64,000 nt of DNA from Candidatus Moraniibacteriota bacterium. GTDB lineage: Bacteria; Patescibacteriota; Minisyncoccia; Moranbacterales; GCA-2747515. Of this stretch, positions 23,291 to 51,110 are shown piece after piece. The notes under the pieces were generated by a model. That model ran no database searches. It worked only from the letters and a program-made list of their open reading frames with translations, and was not told the DNA's origin. The position numbers and the translations under genes are program-made. Numbering within the stretch: the first letter of the stretch is position 1; each line of letters starts with the position of its first letter. The DNA is taken from NCBI GenBank assembly GCA_046116545.1, contig CP175956.1:513734-577733 (forward strand), read 5' to 3'.

Positions 23291-23663
23291 AATAGATTTT
23301 TTAGATTAATATGAAAGTTTTTTCTTTCCCTTGCGTAATATATTGTAGCACTACTTGACAAGATTTCAAAGGTGTGCTAAAGTAGTAAGTCGAGTAAGGA
23401 AGTCTTCAAAAAGCTTTATTTCGACACAATTTTATAGGTTGCTTTTAAAATTTGATATTTTTATGTCTGTAGGCATATTATGGGCTTTACTATCTTTTAA
23501 GCTCATACGGAAGTTATAATCCAGATCGGGTTCTTGTGGTTTCGGCTGCGGCTCTCCTCGATTTCTCTTCTCCCCGCATGAGTCATTGACCTTGCGGGTA
23601 TGCTGCCTACGGTTTTACCTAGGTTAGATGATTGTCTGCAGGCATAAAAATATCAAAACTAAT

Positions 23664-29043: not shown

Positions 29044-29505
29044 ATGAAAAATGCAACAACAGGCACAATAGAACAAACATATGAATTAGCTAGTGATTTT
29101 GTGAAAGAAATGGTTAATGGTGGTTTTTTAGTGTGTTTAGATGGTGATTTAGGTGCAGGTAAAACTACATTTACACAAGGTATTTTAAAAGAATTTGAAG
29201 CTCAGGGACCGTATACATCACCGACATTCAATATTATCAAAGAATATGATGTTAATAAATATGGTATTGAAAAAATTTATCACATAGATGCGTATAGAAT
29301 AGGTAGTGATGATATGGAACTCATAGGTTGGAGTGATATCATAGAAAATGATAAAGCACTTATTGTCATAGAGTGGCCAGAAAATGTCAGTGAAATATTG
29401 CCACAAAATAAATTCGTGATATCATGTGAATGGGTAAGTGAAAATGAAAGAAAATATAATTTTAACAGTGTCATTGCGAGGAGGCACAACGAAGCAATCT
29501 CGTAA
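29044..29505 (+). CDS. tsaE: tRNA threonylcarbamoyladenosine biosynthesis ATPase TsaE
   Basis: 153 aa. DGDLGAGKTTFTQGIL P-loop, canonical TsaE. The last 12 codons are encoded by a dispersed repeat. Confidence 0.8.
   Translation: MKNATTGTIEQTYELASDFVKEMVNGGFLVCLDGDLGAGKTTFTQGILKEFEAQGPYTSPTFNIIKEYDVNKYGIEKIYHIDAYRIGSDDMELIGWSDIIENDKALIVIEWPENVSEILPQNKFVISCEWVSENERKYNFNSVIARRHNEAIS
29469..29505. repeat. Dispersed ~37-nt repeat, family B (copy 1, single arm, inside the 3' end of tsaE)
   Basis: tgtcattgcgaggaggcacaacgaagcaatctcgtaa is near-identical to tgtctttgcgaggaggtacgacgaagcaatcttaaaa at 51017-51053. Confidence 0.6.
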
Positions 29506-29523
29506 AGAACAAAAAACAATAAT

Positions 29524-31413: not shown

Positions 31414-31536
31414 GAGTTAATCTTCTGTTAACCTTTTTGTTAACTATGTAATATACCATAGCTATGAAAAAATAGTATAAAATGTGTTAAAGATGAAATT
31501 AAGGAAAAAATATACAGTTGGTTTTTTCCTTAAACA

Positions 31537-31565
31537 TTGACAAAACTAGCATATTTTACTATAAT
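31537..31565 (+). promoter_or_regulatory. Consensus sigma-70 promoter (TTGACA-17-TATAAT) for the trmB-like gene
   Basis: ttgaca (31537-31542), 17-nt spacer, tataat (31560-31565), about 30 nt before the ATG at 31596. Confidence 0.6.
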
Positions 31566-31595
31566 GAAAGTAATAACATAAATAATATCATTTTT

Positions 31596-32333
31596 ATGAA
31601 TAAGCTATATAAAGAACTCAAAATCTTTGGTTTAACTGAATACGAATCATTGGTATACATGGCACTTTTGGAGACGGGAGAAGCTAATATTGCGCAATTA
31701 ACTAAAAAATCAGGTGTAAATAGGAGTACTGTGTATTTAGCAATTGAATCTTTGAAGAAAAAAGGACTTATAAGTTCAGTAAAAAAACGAAAAACCTTAT
31801 TTTATGCTGAAGATCCGAGAAAAATGATCGATAATTTAGAAAGACAGAAAGAAAAGTTGGAAAAAGTTATGCCTAGTTTTTTAGCCATTTTTGCACTTCT
31901 GGATAAAAAACCAGACATTCGATTTTTTGAGGGAGAGGAGGGAATTAAAGAAATATATAAAGATATCTTAAAAACATCAAATCAAGAAATGCTCGCATGG
32001 TATTCCAATGATTACAAAGAATTTTTTGACAAAAGCTTTTTCTTTGATTTTTTTATACCAGAGCGAAAGAAAAATAAAATCTGGTTGCGAGCAATATATC
32101 CTGAAAATGAATCAATGAGAAATTTAGCAAGTAATAATGTAGAATCTTTACGACAGACTAGATTTATCAAGAATGACAAATTTAATATTGAATGTGAAAT
32201 TTGTTTATATGAAAATAATAAAATTGGAATTGTGTCATATAAAGATGAATTTGGAATTATTATAGCTAGCCAAAGTATTTTTAATACACTAAAATCCATC
32301 TTTGAAGTTATGTGGGATGGTGGTTCAGAATGA
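31596..32333 (+). CDS. TrmB-family transcriptional regulator
   Basis: N-terminal wHTH: MNKLYKELKIFGLTEYESLVYMALLETGEANIAQLTKKSGVNRSTVYLAIESLKKKGLI. Start moved from the ORF-track 31518 to 31596 because the promoter lies inside the 5' extension. Confidence 0.65.
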   Translation: MNKLYKELKIFGLTEYESLVYMALLETGEANIAQLTKKSGVNRSTVYLAIESLKKKGLISSVKKRKTLFYAEDPRKMIDNLERQKEKLEKVMPSFLAIFALLDKKPDIRFFEGEEGIKEIYKDILKTSNQEMLAWYSNDYKEFFDKSFFFDFFIPERKKNKIWLRAIYPENESMRNLASNNVESLRQTRFIKNDKFNIECEICLYENNKIGIVSYKDEFGIIIASQSIFNTLKSIFEVMWDGGSE

Positions 32334-32535
32334 TATTTATAGAAAATGTAGTCTTGATAATAAAGTATAAAGGGATAAGGTGAAATAGATGATAAGGCAA
32401 TGTTTAACCTTGGGACATTCAAAGGTTGGACCTTTTTTGCATACTGGGAGCAATGATACAAAAGCCCCCCATTCCTTTTAAAAGAGGAGGTTTTGGTAGT
32501 GGTAAGCAATATCAAAATTATTGAAGAATGTGGTT

Positions 32536-32570
32536 TAAACCCCCTCTGTCCTTCGGACATATCCCCCTTA
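32536..32570. repeat. Dispersed ~35-nt repeat, family A with UUCG-type hairpin (copy 1, intergenic)
   Basis: aaaccccctctgtccttcggacatatcccccttaa, compared with aaaccccctctgttcttcggacatctccccctcaa at 48994-49028. Contains the gtcc-ttcg-ggac tetraloop hairpin. Confidence 0.6.
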
Positions 32571-32765
32571 AAAAGGTGAGATGTTTATGGTTAATCTTTT
32601 ATGAAATAGCAATTAGATTACTAAACTTAGCTATCTAGTTGATATTTTTTGCGTAGATTGAGTAAGGGTTGTATTATTGTAGAGATAGGTTTTGTGTCTG
32701 TCCTTTAAGATGAAACATAAGACACCCACAAGGAGTGTCACTACAATTATTTATAAACAATTTTT

Positions 32766-35420
32766 ATGACAAAATCAGAAAAGAAAACTTTACTTTTACT
32801 TGATGGAAATGCGATTGTGCATCGGGCTTATCATGCTATTCCACCTCTTACCAATGACGAGGGAATTCAGACCAATGCTGTTTTTGGGTTTACTTCTACA
32901 CTTCTTACTGTACTTGAGAAATTTCAGCCGGATTATATTGTAGCTACCTTTGATTTGCCAGGGAAGAATTTTCGACATGATATGTACAGTGATTACAAGG
33001 CAACTCGCAAGGAAACTCCGGAAGATCTAATTCCTCAATTTGACCTTGTCAAAGATGTTGTGAGGTCAATGGGGATTGTGATTGCTGAGATGGAAGGGTA
33101 TGAAGCTGATGATGTGATAGGGACTATTGCAAAGCAGGCAAGTGGTGATAAAGTAGAGACAATTATTGTAACAGGTGATAAAGATACTTTGCAATTAGTA
33201 GATGATCATGCTCGTGTGTTTACAATGAGTCGAGGGATTCATGACATGGTGCTTTATGACAGAGAACTTGTAAAAGAAAAGATGGGAGTAACAGTTGAAC
33301 AAATTCCAGATTATAAAGGTTTGCGAGGGGATAGTAGTGATAATATACCGGGAGTAAAAGGTGTGGGTGAGAAGACTGCGATAGCACTACTCTCAGAATA
33401 TGGAGACCTTGATGGAGTGTATGCAAACCTTAATAATATAAAAGATGCATGGCGTAAAAAGCTTGAAACAGATAAAGAGAAAGCATTTCTCTCAAAAGAA
33501 TTAGGCATTATCAAAACTGATGTGCCAATAGAACCTATTAATTATGATTTTGCCAAAACTTCTGATATGACTTTTGATACTGCTCGTAAAATGTTTTTGC
33601 AAATGGGATTCACAAGTCTTTTGAAGCGTTTACCTGAAAATGGAGAAGATAAAAATAATGGAGAAGAAATAAAAATAAAAACATTGGAAGGGTCTCAAGT
33701 AAAAAAAACATTAGAGAGTTTAAAAAATAAAAAAACTGTTGTAGCTGTTGATTGTTCTGATGGCGTTATCTATGGTCTGGCAATTGTGGTTGATGATGAA
33801 TTGTTATATATACAAATTAATAAGGAGTCGAAGAACGTGTGTGTTGAGTTTTTGGAGGATGATAATATTAAAAAAATAATTTTTGATATTAAGGATATGA
33901 TGCATGAATTAAAAAAATGCAAAATTGTCCTAAAAGGTGGTGTACAGGATGTTTTGTTGCAGGCTTATATTACGCAACAAAACAAGAAGTTAAAGTTCGA
34001 TACATTGGTATTTGATGTGTTTGGTGTGATGTTGGAGAAAAAAGCCACAGGTGCACAAATGGCGTTGGAACTTAGGGATAATGATAATGAAAAACAAACG
34101 GTTTGTGAAAAAGTATATTATACAAATGGATTAGCTAGTCATTTTGATAAAAAAATTAGTGAAACGTTGAAAACTCAAAAAGAAAAAGCAAATATTCAAA
34201 CAATGCTGGATACTATGGAGATGCCACTCATTGAAATTTTGTTTAACATGGAGGAACGAGGGATTAAACTTGATAAAAATACGTTTAGTAAAATAGCAGA
34301 GTACATTGATGGAAATATAGAAGAATTATCAGAAAACATTTATAAGCATGCAGAAGAAGTATTTAATATTAACTCAACAAAGCAATTAAGAGTAATTCTT
34401 TTTGAAAAACTTGGAATTGATACGAAAGATATTAAAAAAACAAAAACAGGATTTTCAACAGCATCTAGTGAATTAGATAAAATTAGAGATGTTCATCCGA
34501 TAGTAGAAAATATTGAAAAATACAGAGAATTATTTAAACTTAAATCTACATATATAGATGTGTTACCGACTTTGACGGATAGTGAAAATAAAATTCATAC
34601 AACATTTAATCAAGCAGTTACTTCAACAGGAAGGTTGTCATCTTCTGAGCCAAATTTGCAAAATATTCCAATTCGTACAGAAGAAGGTCGGAAAATGCGT
34701 GATGGCTTTGTAGCGAGTGATGGATATGTATTTGTTAGTGCTGATTATTCTCAAATCGATCTGCGGTGCGTTGCACATGCAAGCGGAGATAAGACAATGA
34801 TTAAGGCATTTAATGAAGGTGCTGATATTCACACAACTACAGCCGCAACAGTAATGGGTAAAAATCCAGAAGAAATTACAAAAATTGAGAGAGCGAGTGC
34901 AAAAGAATTAAATTTTGGACTTATTTATGGAATGGGGGCACATGGATTTGCAGTAGCAGCTGGTATAAGTAGGGAAGAAGCAAAAGAATTTATAGCAACA
35001 TATTTTGAAAAATTTGCTGGTGTAAAGACATATATAGAAAATACAAAAAAAGAAGCGGCTGAAGTCGGGTATGTAGAAACATTATTTGGTCGTAGGAGAT
35101 ATGTGCCAAATATAACTGCAAAAAATTTCATGTTAAAAAGTGGAGCTGAACGTGCAGCAATTAATATGCCAATTCAAGGACTTGCTGCAGATATAATGAA
35201 ATTAGCAATGATAGCGGCAGATAGATATATTGCAAAAACATATAGTGAAGGAGACGTATACGCAATATTGCAAGTACATGATGAAATTATATTTGAGGTT
35301 AAAAAAGAAATTGTAGAAGAATTTAATAAAAATATAGTAAGAGTAATGGAAAACGTTTGTAAATTGTCAGTACCCTTAGTAGTGGATACGGAAAGCGGTG
35401 ATAATTGGGGAGAACTTTAG
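32766..35420 (+). CDS. polA: DNA polymerase I
   Basis: 884 aa. 5'-3' exonuclease N-terminus (LLLDGNAIVHRAYHA), polymerase motifs A/B/C (DYSQIDLR, RRxxKxxNFGxxYG, VHDEI). Confidence 0.95.
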   Translation: MTKSEKKTLLLLDGNAIVHRAYHAIPPLTNDEGIQTNAVFGFTSTLLTVLEKFQPDYIVATFDLPGKNFRHDMYSDYKATRKETPEDLIPQFDLVKDVVRSMGIVIAEMEGYEADDVIGTIAKQASGDKVETIIVTGDKDTLQLVDDHARVFTMSRGIHDMVLYDRELVKEKMGVTVEQIPDYKGLRGDSSDNIPGVKGVGEKTAIALLSEYGDLDGVYANLNNIKDAWRKKLETDKEKAFLSKELGIIKTDVPIEPINYDFAKTSDMTFDTARKMFLQMGFTSLLKRLPENGEDKNNGEEIKIKTLEGSQVKKTLESLKNKKTVVAVDCSDGVIYGLAIVVDDELLYIQINKESKNVCVEFLEDDNIKKIIFDIKDMMHELKKCKIVLKGGVQDVLLQAYITQQNKKLKFDTLVFDVFGVMLEKKATGAQMALELRDNDNEKQTVCEKVYYTNGLASHFDKKISETLKTQKEKANIQTMLDTMEMPLIEILFNMEERGIKLDKNTFSKIAEYIDGNIEELSENIYKHAEEVFNINSTKQLRVILFEKLGIDTKDIKKTKTGFSTASSELDKIRDVHPIVENIEKYRELFKLKSTYIDVLPTLTDSENKIHTTFNQAVTSTGRLSSSEPNLQNIPIRTEEGRKMRDGFVASDGYVFVSADYSQIDLRCVAHASGDKTMIKAFNEGADIHTTTAATVMGKNPEEITKIERASAKELNFGLIYGMGAHGFAVAAGISREEAKEFIATYFEKFAGVKTYIENTKKEAAEVGYVETLFGRRRYVPNITAKNFMLKSGAERAAINMPIQGLAADIMKLAMIAADRYIAKTYSEGDVYAILQVHDEIIFEVKKEIVEEFNKNIVRVMENVCKLSVPLVVDTESGDNWGEL

Positions 35421-37461: not shown

Positions 37462-37483
37462 ATCAATTGTGATTTTTGCATGA

Positions 37484-37523
37484 AAAAGGTCCAACCTAAG
37501 GTTAACCCTAGGTTGGACCTTTT
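37484..37523 (+). terminator. Rho-independent terminator
   Basis: aaaaggtccaacctaaggttaaccctaggttggacctttt. Confidence 0.7.
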
Positions 37524-43418: not shown

Positions 43419-43702
43419 ATTTGTTAGTTGTTTTAAAGAAAGAGTAAAAAGCATGACAAGAGAGATCTACATTATTTCATTGATGAGTTTTTTGCAATCT
43501 TATGTAAAATGTTAGGATACCATTTCTAACTATTACTTAGTGTAGTGGCGCGGTCTTGTACCCGCCATGTGTATATAATGCGAGGACAGCCACAAGGGCA
43601 TGTCCCTACAAGTGAATCATTGAGTAAGAGTTTATTGAAAAAGGTATTATTATTTATTATTTTTTTTGATAATTGTTTGAGTACTTATTAAGATACCTTA
43701 AT

Positions 43703-47933: not shown

Positions 47934-48527
47934 ATGAAAATAATTCAAATAGTAATTACAATTTTTGCACTATCTTTAGCAGCTGTTCATATATTTTTGC
48001 CAAATTTAAAAATTGATGCAATTACAATAACTCTTGTAGTTATTGCAATTATTCCTTGGCTTGCTCCATTAATTAAAACTTTGGAATTTCCAGGCGGCTG
48101 GAAGGTTGAATTTAGTGAAAAATTGAAAAAAGTTGAGATAGATGTGGAAAAAGCTGGTTTAATTGATGAACAACTGGTTGGGGATATTCAAAAGTATTCA
48201 TTTACAAATGTGGCTGATTCAAATGTAGCACTTATGCTTGCAGGTCTCAGAATTGAATTAGAAAAAAGTTTAAAGGTGTTGGCAAAGTGTCATAATATTG
48301 AACTACATAGATATAACAGTATCGCAGTCGTAATAATTAAATTACATAAATTAGATATTATTTCAGATGAGGAACAATATATTTTAAATGAAACAATAGG
48401 AATTTTAAATCGTGCTGTACATGGTGAATATATTGATTACCAAGAGGCACAAAGGGTTAAATCTGTTGGTTTAAAAGTGTTGGGTGAATTTGAAAAAAAA
48501 ATAATTGAAAATAAATTATGCAAATAA
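47934..48527 (+). CDS. Membrane-anchored hypothetical protein
   Basis: Two N-terminal TM helices, then a helical domain. Start set at MKIIQIV... instead of ORF-track 47895 to avoid overlap with metG. Confidence 0.35.
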   Translation: MKIIQIVITIFALSLAAVHIFLPNLKIDAITITLVVIAIIPWLAPLIKTLEFPGGWKVEFSEKLKKVEIDVEKAGLIDEQLVGDIQKYSFTNVADSNVALMLAGLRIELEKSLKVLAKCHNIELHRYNSIAVVIIKLHKLDIISDEEQYILNETIGILNRAVHGEYIDYQEAQRVKSVGLKVLGEFEKKIIENKLCK

Positions 48528-49360
48528 TAGACTCACACGCACATGTGCATGATAAAAAATTTGATGAAGATCGTGAAGCTGTAATTCAACGGTCTTTTGA
48601 TGATGGGGTGGAAAAAATTATTACTGTTGGCACAAATGAAAAGACATCTTTTGAGGCGATTGAACTTGCCCAGAAGTATGAAAATATTTATGCAACAATT
48701 GGGTTACATCCGTTGCACTTATTTGAGGCTAGTAATTGTGATCCTGAAGAGCAATTTGTAGAGGATTTTGATTATGATAAGTATTTGCAATTGGCAAAAA
48801 ATGAAAATGTTGTAGCTATTGGAGAAGTTGGGTTGGATTATCATCATTTTGGAGAAGGTGATGATGTGGAAACTATTAAAAAAGAACAACGGAGAGTTTT
48901 TATTGAGTTTATTAATATTTGTAAAGAGGTGAAAAAGCCTATTGTTGTGCATTGTTGGGATGGTTATGGTGAGTTGTTGGAGATTTTAGCACAAAACCCC
49001 CTCTGTTCTTCGGACATCTCCCCCTCAAGGAAGGGGAGAGGATATGGTGTAATTCATAGTTATATTGGTAGTTGGAAGAATGCGGAGAAATTTATTGAAT
49101 TGGGTTATAAGATTGGATTAAATGGAATTGCAACTTATGGTGAGTCATATGATAAGCTTATTAGAAATATAGATTTGAAGGATTTACTTATTGAAACAGA
49201 TGCTCCATATTTGCCACCACGACCCTTACTACGAGAAAATAGATGTGAGCCAAAGGATGTTAGATTAGTGGCAGAGAAAATTGCACAAGTAAAGGAAATT
49301 AATGTGGGAGAAGTCATCAAACAAATTACAAAAAATACTGAAGAATTATTTAAAATATAA
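48518..49360 (+). CDS. tatD: TatD-family metal-dependent DNase, with an in-frame repeat-derived insertion
   Basis: 280 aa. IDSHAHVH...(TatD motif)...GEVGLDY...; the segment NPLCSSDISPSRKGRGY is encoded by a repeat family A copy. Confidence 0.8.
   Translation: MQIIDSHAHVHDKKFDEDREAVIQRSFDDGVEKIITVGTNEKTSFEAIELAQKYENIYATIGLHPLHLFEASNCDPEEQFVEDFDYDKYLQLAKNENVVAIGEVGLDYHHFGEGDDVETIKKEQRRVFIEFINICKEVKKPIVVHCWDGYGELLEILAQNPLCSSDISPSRKGRGYGVIHSYIGSWKNAEKFIELGYKIGLNGIATYGESYDKLIRNIDLKDLLIETDAPYLPPRPLLRENRCEPKDVRLVAEKIAQVKEINVGEVIKQITKNTEELFKI
48994..49028. repeat. Dispersed ~35-nt repeat, family A (copy 2, in-frame inside tatD)
   Basis: aaaccccctctgttcttcggacatctccccctcaa. 32/35 identical to 32536-32570. 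Followed by the ggaaggggagag inverted partner of ctcccc. Confidence 0.6.
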
Positions 49361-51010: not shown

Positions 51011-51016
51011 TTTTAG

Positions 51017-51110
51017 TGTCTTTGCGAGGAGGTACGACGAAGCAATCTTAAAAAGTATTTATAAATACTACTGAGATTGCCACGTCGCTAAATGCTTCTC
51101 GCAATGACAT
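51017..51110. repeat. Repeat family B, palindromic copy (two inverted arms around an AT palindrome)
   Basis: Left arm tgtctttgcgaggaggtacgacgaagcaatc. Right arm gattgccacgtcgctaaatgcttctcgcaatgaca is its imperfect reverse complement. Central agtatttataaatact. Confidence 0.55.

Follow-up and report, generated by a model that had tools for sequence, protein, structure and literature searches.

A GC-rich hairpin repeat upstream of polA and in-frame in tatD of a Moraniibacteriota genome is probably a tolerated selfish element

Why does nearly the same C-rich, hairpin-forming sequence of 35 nucleotides occur in a non-coding spacer and, within the same stretch of genome, inside the reading frame of a conserved enzyme? 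We address this question in 64,000 nucleotides of contig CP175956.1 of a Candidatus Moraniibacteriota bacterium (hereafter, the window), where one copy lies upstream of polA and another within tatD, the gene of a TatD-family hydrolase. By combining orthologue alignments, genome scans, covariation analysis and structure prediction, we find that both copies belong to a family of GC-rich elements of roughly 45–65 nt that reaches beyond the source organism and resides in-frame in several unrelated genes. With a probability of roughly 70%, we interpret the element as a non-autonomous selfish repeat, akin to repetitive extragenic palindromes (REPs) and Rickettsia palindromic elements (RPEs), that is translated through and tolerated.

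A pattern search of the window for the 35-mer gave exactly two matches, at 32,537–32,571 and 48,994–49,028, which are identical at 32 of 35 positions, compared to none in 100 dinucleotide shuffles. An earlier interpretation of the window made from its letters alone (the sequence-only reading) had proposed both copies; its position for the second was exact, and that for the first (32,536–32,570) was one nucleotide too low. No third copy appeared when the window was searched for the 29-nt core of the element with up to eight mismatches. Both copies are islands of high GC content in a surrounding genome of 31% GC, and four of the five runs of at least five C in the window belong to them. The intergenic copy (32,537–32,585, forward strand) consists of AAA, the core (32,540–32,568), a loop (TAAAAA) and a degenerate G-rich arm, GGTGAGAT (32,575–32,582), and the intragenic copy (48,994–49,041, forward strand) of AAA, the core (48,997–49,025), a loop (CAAGGAA) and the G-rich arm GGGGAGAGG (49,033–49,041), likewise degenerate. 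Each differs from the cross-phylum consensus of the core at a single position (C to A at 32,561 and C to T at 49,007).

The core, which we defined by aligning the flanks of matches from a genome scan, is the 29-mer CCCCCTCTGTCCTTCGGACATCTCCCCCT, laid out as CCCCCTCT-GTCC-TTC-GGAC-ATCTCCCCCT and without a stop codon in any of the six frames. Its two C-rich arms, CCCCCTCT and TCTCCCCC, are mirror images that flank a small hairpin of 11 nt (hairpin A; stem GTCC/GGAC, 3-nt loop), and 3′ of it a loop of 2–7 nt leads into a G-rich arm, AGGGGGAGA, which is complementary to the second C arm and forms hairpin B with it. In the window, hairpin A lies at 32,548–32,558 in the intergenic copy (GTCC-TTC-GGAC) and at 49,005–49,015 in tatD (GTTC-TTC-GGAC, with a G·U wobble), and hairpin B of the tatD copy spans 49,018–49,038, where CTCCCC (49,018–49,023) faces GGGGAG (49,033–49,038). 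The C-rich arms and this inverted partner were described correctly before; the UUCG tetraloop proposed at the same time is rejected, as the register of the stem gives a TTC triloop and c(UUCG)g is out of register, also by folding.

Fuller copies outside the window close a three-way junction with a second G-rich arm, or are perfect palindromes or inverted doublets. In a set of 101 exact copies that extend far enough downstream to be scored, 40 have a perfect 3′ arm and another 28 an arm with a single mismatch; a perfect second G-rich arm, AGAGGGGG, the partner of the first C arm, is present in 15 of the 101, and 19 have an inverted 29-mer no more than 260 nt away, as in the REPIN type of doublet. 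The 29-mer forms a perfect palindrome in one copy (L040), and the three-way-junction consensus of the family folds at −35.9 kcal/mol (z = −4.3).

The stem of hairpin A, 4–5 bp long, is free to change as long as pairing is kept, and it covaries across the family. A metagenome scan in which the two arms alone were fixed (CCCCCTCT-N10-14-ATCTCCCCC) gave at least 120 loci; their middle segment is nearly always a hairpin, with paired substitutions that give stems such as GTCC/GGAC, GGCC/GGCC, GCCC/GGGC, GTCGC/GCGAC and GTCAC/GTGAC. An alignment of 76 distinct copies has 99.7% of its stem cells paired and 55 double changes, a level that none of 500 shuffles reached and from which slid registers are also far off. 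That alignment kept only copies able to form the outer three pairs and left the inner pair unfiltered, and the inner pair by itself shows 21 double changes and one break.

How far does the family extend? When one genome for each GTDB species was scanned with the pattern CCCCCTCTGTNCTTCGGACATNTCCCCCT, 90 stretches were returned, and the exact 29-mer occurs in 101 copies outside the window, in roughly 60 species-representative metagenome-assembled genomes (MAGs) from at least ten phyla. Hosts include Abditibacteriota, Bacteroidota (Bacteroidaceae, Chitinophagaceae), Spirochaetota, Chloroflexota (Brevefilum), a Clostridia MAG, Gammaproteobacteria MAGs, several Patescibacteria (Moran-, Gracili-, SR1, Nomura- and Peribacteria), Saganbacteria and Melainabacteria; in Abditibacterium, roughly 20 exact copies, mainly inverted doublets, lie on one 4.7-Mb contig labelled chromosome_2. 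Both free positions of the search pattern are C in all 101 matches outside the window, an apparent invariance that is inflated because an exact-match search picks the least diverged copies. Relatives are abundant in Rhizobiales: a blastn search of plasmids returned 47 records that cover element positions 1–43, all of them from Alphaproteobacteria and all from Rhizobiales except five from Roseomonas. The two plasmid records that we read contain cccccctctgtcctgccggacatctccccctcaaggggggagat arranged as inverted doublets, one copy with a compensatory stem variant (gccc/gggc). This Rhizobiales version, CCCCCCTCTG(T/G/C)CCTGCCGG(A/C/G)CATCTCCCCC-loop-GGGGGGAGAT, is abundant, occurs in inverted doublets and shares the core of the window element except that its loop has 4 nt rather than 3.

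A phage-borne element is rejected, with no exact 29-mer among the 2.9 million contigs of IMG/VR and two short partial matches among GenBank phages. A known RNA family is rejected too: scans with Rfam 15 of the window, 18 loci with the TTC loop and 10 of the Rhizobiales type found no matching family at the gathering score, and E-value scans nothing relevant. A search of the available literature by sequence and by six peptide translations found no relevant paper, and a protein word-index search with six-frame peptides gave just four, uninformative candidates.

Two side observations concern these relatives. On pSymB of Sinorhizobium meliloti strain Ak57, an open reading frame (ORF) that is absent from the plasmid's gene table (L099, 1,090–1,720, 3′ of mtaB) contains three in-frame copies of the Rhizobiales type within an acidic, proline-rich stretch (ISSPAGEMPGTAEG, APPSVPSGHLPLKGE, ISPLEGEMPGRAEG). 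In the Abditibacterium doublets of CBDASK010000003.1 (L001, L006, L024, L058, L071 and L072), the outer flanks of 15–30 nt vary between loci, and within each doublet one flank repeats the other in inverted orientation, which points either to copying between the arms or to maintenance of a long hairpin.

In tatD (48,518–49,360, forward strand; 280 residues, intact), the copy encodes NPLCSSDISPSRKGRGY directly before the GVIHS motif, in-frame as had been claimed. The TatD protein of the window is 100% identical to one annotated in a Candidatus Moraniibacteriota MAG on a 1.29-Mb contig. The codons for the extra loop L162–Y176 (49,001–49,045, forward strand) contribute 15 residues, compared to 4 in insert-free orthologues, and the metal-binding and catalytic residues that are invariant in the TatD alignment (H7, H9, E103, H145, H180 and D228) are all kept. 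That the segment is an insertion, as the sequence-only reading had supposed, is borne out by an alignment of 36 TatD proteins with a variable site between ...LEIL-x-x-N-P and GVIHS. There, 24 proteins, among them the nearest relative (85% identical), have the insert-free PV(E/D)K(K/L/R) or a close variant; the element is carried by three (the window protein, P0008 and P0025), a different C-rich repeat by six (P0002, P0003, P0004, P0006, P0007 and P0010), and an unrelated extra segment by one (P0058). These states account for 34 proteins, and the other two show no unambiguous state.

The repeat in the six proteins encodes N-T-L-T-L-N-P-S-P-T-G-R-G-R-K, and its DNA, ACCCTCACCCTCAATCCCTCTCCCACAGGGAGAGGG, combines a C-rich tract with a hairpin. 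Because this different repeat occupies exactly the same codon, the site is a recurrent landing spot for C-rich hairpin repeats. As a side note, the sister repeat has the form ACCCTCACCCTCAATCCCTCTCCC-ACA-GGGAGAGGG and encodes TLTLNPSPTGRG (for example, L096, 3,777–4,613, and L223, 501–1,337).

The three proteins that carry the element are just 65–78% identical to one another, and they share the DNA AAC CCC CTC TGT CCT TCG GAC ATC TCC CCC T with zero or one change. Coincidental likeness to the intergenic copy, which a shared peptide without nucleotide similarity would have suggested, is not what we find, because the nucleotide sequence, too, is shared by both orthologues that have the peptide. 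In a neighbour-joining tree of TatD built without the insert columns, carriers stand beside insert-free sisters (P0001/P0005, P0008/P0013 and P0006/P0012), and carriers are polyphyletic. The empty site is the ancestral state, because insert-free sequences share PVEKK with distant outgroups and carriers have lost these residues. The element was gained more than once at this codon, or it moved between lineages by recombination. The empty sites read CAA AAC CC(T) (CAAAACCC), matching the 5′ end of copies of the Moranbacteria type, in front of which (G)CAAAA regularly stands; this match hints at a target preference or at microhomology, and the filled and empty sister alleles are too diverged to fix junctions or a target duplication.

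An AlphaFold2 model of TatD built from the alignment (mean predicted local distance difference test (pLDDT) score of 90, predicted template modelling score (pTM) of 0.89) places residues 160–176 as coil between a helix (150–159) and a strand (177–180), with a pLDDT below 50 at residues 166–173. The insert is thus predicted to be a disordered surface loop, and the closest solved homologue, Thermotoga TatD (1j6o), is without the insert residues. In TIM barrels, a loop from helix to strand sits on the face opposite the catalytic one. The insert is probably tolerated because the core is free of stop codons in six frames and the site lies on the barrel face away from the active site.

Residence inside genes extends beyond tatD. 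Analysis of spanning ORFs together with Pfam found exact copies in-frame in ten other proteins, where they read as an extra segment, as RPEs do. Pfam domains of the host flank the element on both sides in leucyl-tRNA synthetase (LeuRS), a PglZ response regulator, a GDP-fucose-synthase-like epimerase, a histidine kinase, a RecD-like helicase and HypF, and the element lies inside the matched domain in the C-terminal domain of isoleucyl-tRNA synthetase, RNase R (RNB domain), RNase HII and a radical-SAM protein. In LeuRS, a whole inverted doublet stands between the catalytic and the anticodon-binding domains. The in-frame copies use all six reading frames; relative to flanking genes, the four possible arrangements occur 13, 12, 9 and 6 times, which on crude ORF calls shows no bias, and a similarly crude survey of intragenic copies counts 14 in the same sense and 13 in antisense.

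The spacer that hosts the intergenic copy (32,334–32,765), between a TrmB-like gene (31,518–32,333) and polA (32,766–35,420), is upstream of polA as had been stated. The copy is absent upstream of polA in all three relatives compared (PolA 79–84% identical, spacer blocks conserved), which have other small palindromic repeats near its position, of the type TGTCAT(A/T)..CGAGCGAAG. The spacer is therefore a landing area for several repeat families, and the intergenic copy is specific to its lineage. Just upstream of polA, the relatives have palindromic repeats of the type TGTCATATCGAGCGAAG..., single or in doublets (L224, 1,190–1,290; L225, 350–460; L226, 1,205–1,250). The spacer also contains a terminator-like palindrome downstream of the TrmB-like gene (32,399–32,437), with a related, equally terminator-like one roughly 5 kb away (37,483–37,523; AAGGTCCAACC...GGTTGGACCTTTT). 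At 32,460–32,495, 45 nt upstream of the intergenic copy, AAAAGCCCCCCATTCCTTTTAAAAGAGGAGGTTTT (a loop between a C-rich and a G-rich tract) holds the only run of five or more C in the window outside the element and is possibly the decayed relic of a related element.

Elsewhere in the window, a second repeat family, (A)GTGTC(A/T)TTGCGAGGAGG...CGAAGCAATCT, is present as a singleton (29,467–29,507) and as a copy (51,015–51,055) with an inverted partner at roughly 51,073–51,108; by its layout, a TGTC tag and a stem that starts with AT, it resembles CGTC-tagged REPs (Di Nocera et al. 2013). Two more GC-rich islands of 75–79 nt, at 43,536–43,610 and 23,521–23,599, have no Rfam match at the gathering score.

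What kind of element would leave this record? We suggest that one copy landed in the spacer upstream of polA and another in the tatD loop between a helix and the β-strand that bears the conserved histidine of GVIH, where the ribosome would read through it as a disordered surface loop of 15 residues, so that the insert is probably translated rather than removed. Its patchy presence among orthologues argues that the element moves; the substrate is presumably a folded single strand on which an enzyme encoded by the host or by an insertion sequence (IS) acts in trans. The data support the earlier interpretation of the element as an insertion of REP-like character, and the likeness then drawn to REP repeats holds in that copies occur in other genomes, both intergenic and in-frame in unrelated genes; the terminal-repeat and target-duplication signature of the Correia type was not found.

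Several observations weigh against a selfish repeat. The window holds just two visible copies, both singletons without an inverted-doublet partner. Owing to their degenerate 3′ arms, these copies are no more stable when folded than shuffled sequence (z = −0.08 and 0.04) and may no longer be active. We found no transposase, no terminal inverted repeat with target duplication and no pair of empty and filled sites that defines junctions. A tblastn search of 1.57 Mb of DNA with approximate IS200 TnpA and YafM queries gave one weak match (L164, E = 6 × 10−4), with no Pfam support and no flanking pair of elements. The most serious objection is that the 29-mer is much better kept than a decaying selfish insert should be: within it, all seven codons that encode the same residue in the three tatD carriers share their third base, compared to 40% in the rest of the gene (P = 0.0017), and the two substitutions among the carriers are in first positions and non-synonymous. 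The next 18–20 nt (loop and G-rich arm) have several substitutions and indels relative to one another and to the lineage consensus, roughly 15–20% from the latter by eye, and the sister repeat in tatD shows ordinary decay (roughly 8 of 42 positions differ between P0006 and P0002, by reading the alignment). Given the identity of third bases, protein function does not explain the conservation of the 29-mer; it calls for insertions that were recent and independent, for gene conversion by other copies or for selection acting on the DNA or RNA sequence, three options that the present data do not separate.

No support was found in the DNA searched for an association with REP-associated tyrosine transposases (RAYTs): the single tblastn match is weak and unsupported, on approximate queries, and two Abditibacterium doublets (L072) flank ordinary genes rather than a transposase, judged on ORF translations alone. 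As an observation apart, the matched ORF of 180 residues (L164, 859–1,398), 800 nt from a single copy of the element, has an HVH and a YLHHNPCRKGLV motif reminiscent of RAYTs; it has no Pfam match at E ≤ 0.001.

Selection on the DNA or RNA sequence leads to the main rival of the selfish repeat, which we consider unlikely overall: the 29-mer would have a function as a nucleic acid, either as a site in DNA or RNA that a conserved factor recognises or as a structure that regulates or stabilises, and would be selected at the nucleotide level even in coding regions and spread by recruitment. The 29-mer does not vary at synonymous sites among three tatD orthologues that are nearly saturated at such sites elsewhere, the stem of hairpin A covaries, and the pyrimidine mirror arms are invariant in our sample, though the search pattern fixed them. 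The identical base at both free pattern positions in 101 of 101 matches also fits such a motif, but the preference of an exact-match search for the least diverged copies inflates that invariance. Some copies abut start codons (L063 and L028 lie just upstream of one, with the G-rich arm in the Shine-Dalgarno position); overall, however, the element occurs in both orientations without bias relative to genes, by the crude ORF calls, in the spacers of every gene arrangement and in all six frames of unrelated proteins. It is also patchy among close relatives, no Rfam family matches it, and in other relatives the same codon of tatD hosts another family of repeats.

A bolder and still more doubtful variant sees the 29-mer as a sequence-specific module, near-invariant over at least ten phyla and at synonymous sites, that is recognised by widely conserved machinery and that, together with sister families (ACCCTCACCC...CCCTCTCCC-loop-GGGAGAGGG), repeatedly targets the same tatD codon. 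The machinery could be a mobilising enzyme without the hallmarks of RAYTs or a host factor that binds the pyrimidine mirror repeat and the hairpin; if so, the element would represent a pan-bacterial class of site-selective coding palindromes.

It is very improbable that the lineage's TatD gained an adaptive surface loop and that the likeness to the intergenic copy is secondary. The frame is intact and the peptide NPLC(P/S)(S/T)DISP is kept in three orthologues, but the conservation is at the nucleotide level, third positions included, and both observed substitutions are non-synonymous; the segment is predicted to be disordered, most orthologues are without it and others have an unrelated repeat in its place, and this DNA also occurs between genes elsewhere and, in other proteins, in other reading frames. 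Chance resemblance or an assembly artefact, which the origin of all genome-collection matches from MAGs might suggest, is refuted by the shuffles, by three independent assemblies with the element in-frame at the same tatD codon and each with a different 3′ tail, by complete Rhizobiales replicons of cultured strains and by the 4.7-Mb Abditibacterium contig.

A tolerated selfish repeat thus remains our preferred explanation, and it would bring the behaviour of in-frame palindromic repeats, well documented in Rickettsia and a few Proteobacteria, to a reduced Patescibacteria genome. The core of the family is common almost base for base to Bacteroidota, Abditibacteriota and Cyanobacteria-related lineages and, with a change of loop, to Rhizobiales, which raises the question of how 29 bases stay constant across phyla and synonymous sites, and whether the mover belongs to a known class of transposases or is something else. 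In practice, the element accounts for odd proline- and glycine-rich inserts and for small spurious ORFs annotated in MAGs, and its positions point to loops of conserved enzymes that tolerate insertions; the tatD site is a convenient natural test bed, because two repeat families occur there in close relatives.

How does the element compare with known repeat systems? MITEs (miniature transposable elements with inverted repeats) carry IS-derived terminal inverted repeats together with a target-site duplication. Like the Correia/NEMIS elements of Neisseria, the element is non-autonomous and hairpin-forming, often co-transcribed with genes and located in or beside coding regions, but it is shorter than most MITEs. 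Its full form is a palindrome, so that its ends are inverted repeats, and no parent IS was found; the TA...TA flanks seen in some AT-rich genomes resemble a part of the palindrome rather than a duplication. The named rhizobial repeats (RIME, the Sm-repeats and the A, B and C palindromes of S. meliloti and Bru-RS of Brucella), to one of which the Rhizobiales version may correspond, are longer mosaic units of at least 100 bp.

The likeness to REPs is closer. The element is a short GC-rich stem-loop that occurs as singletons and as inverted doublets, is mainly extragenic with some intragenic copies, and often resides in genes of DNA and RNA metabolism. REPs are imperfect palindromes of 20–40 bp that can form a stem-loop; the element has both hairpin A and hairpin B and the stable consensus fold given above, and its relatives (Abditibacterium, contigs of the Rhizobiales type) form the inverted doublets that the window copies lack. 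REP families are common to several phyla, and CGTC REPs occur in five phyla without a known dedicated transposase (Di Nocera et al. 2013, PMC3733652). Those CGTC REPs have a terminal CGTC (or TGTC or CCTC) tag, a stem of 8–9 bp and a short tail. Hairpin B resembles them in its 9-bp stem that opens with A-T and T-A and has a loop of 4–5 nt (ATCTCCCCC/loop/GGGGGAGAT), but the CGTC tag itself is not present before the stem, where the four bases are GGAC, GGCC or GGGC and belong to the covarying hairpin A. The flanks of 103 copies have no GTAG or CTAC tag at the element ends, with A, CA, AC or GC before the run of C. The element further differs from REPs in an extra 5′ module, the C-rich arm and covarying mini-hairpin, and in that no RAYT turned up near it in the limited DNA examined with approximate queries. 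We therefore file it under neither GTAG nor CGTC REPs.

In its behaviour inside genes, the element is most like the RPEs, small palindromic repeats of roughly 95–150 bp described in Rickettsia (Ogata et al. 2000, as summarised in PMC3733652). By description, both reside in spacers and in-frame in housekeeping genes, are translated as extra loop segments and are patchy among relatives, whereas the window element, at roughly 45–65 nt, is shorter and occurs in many phyla.

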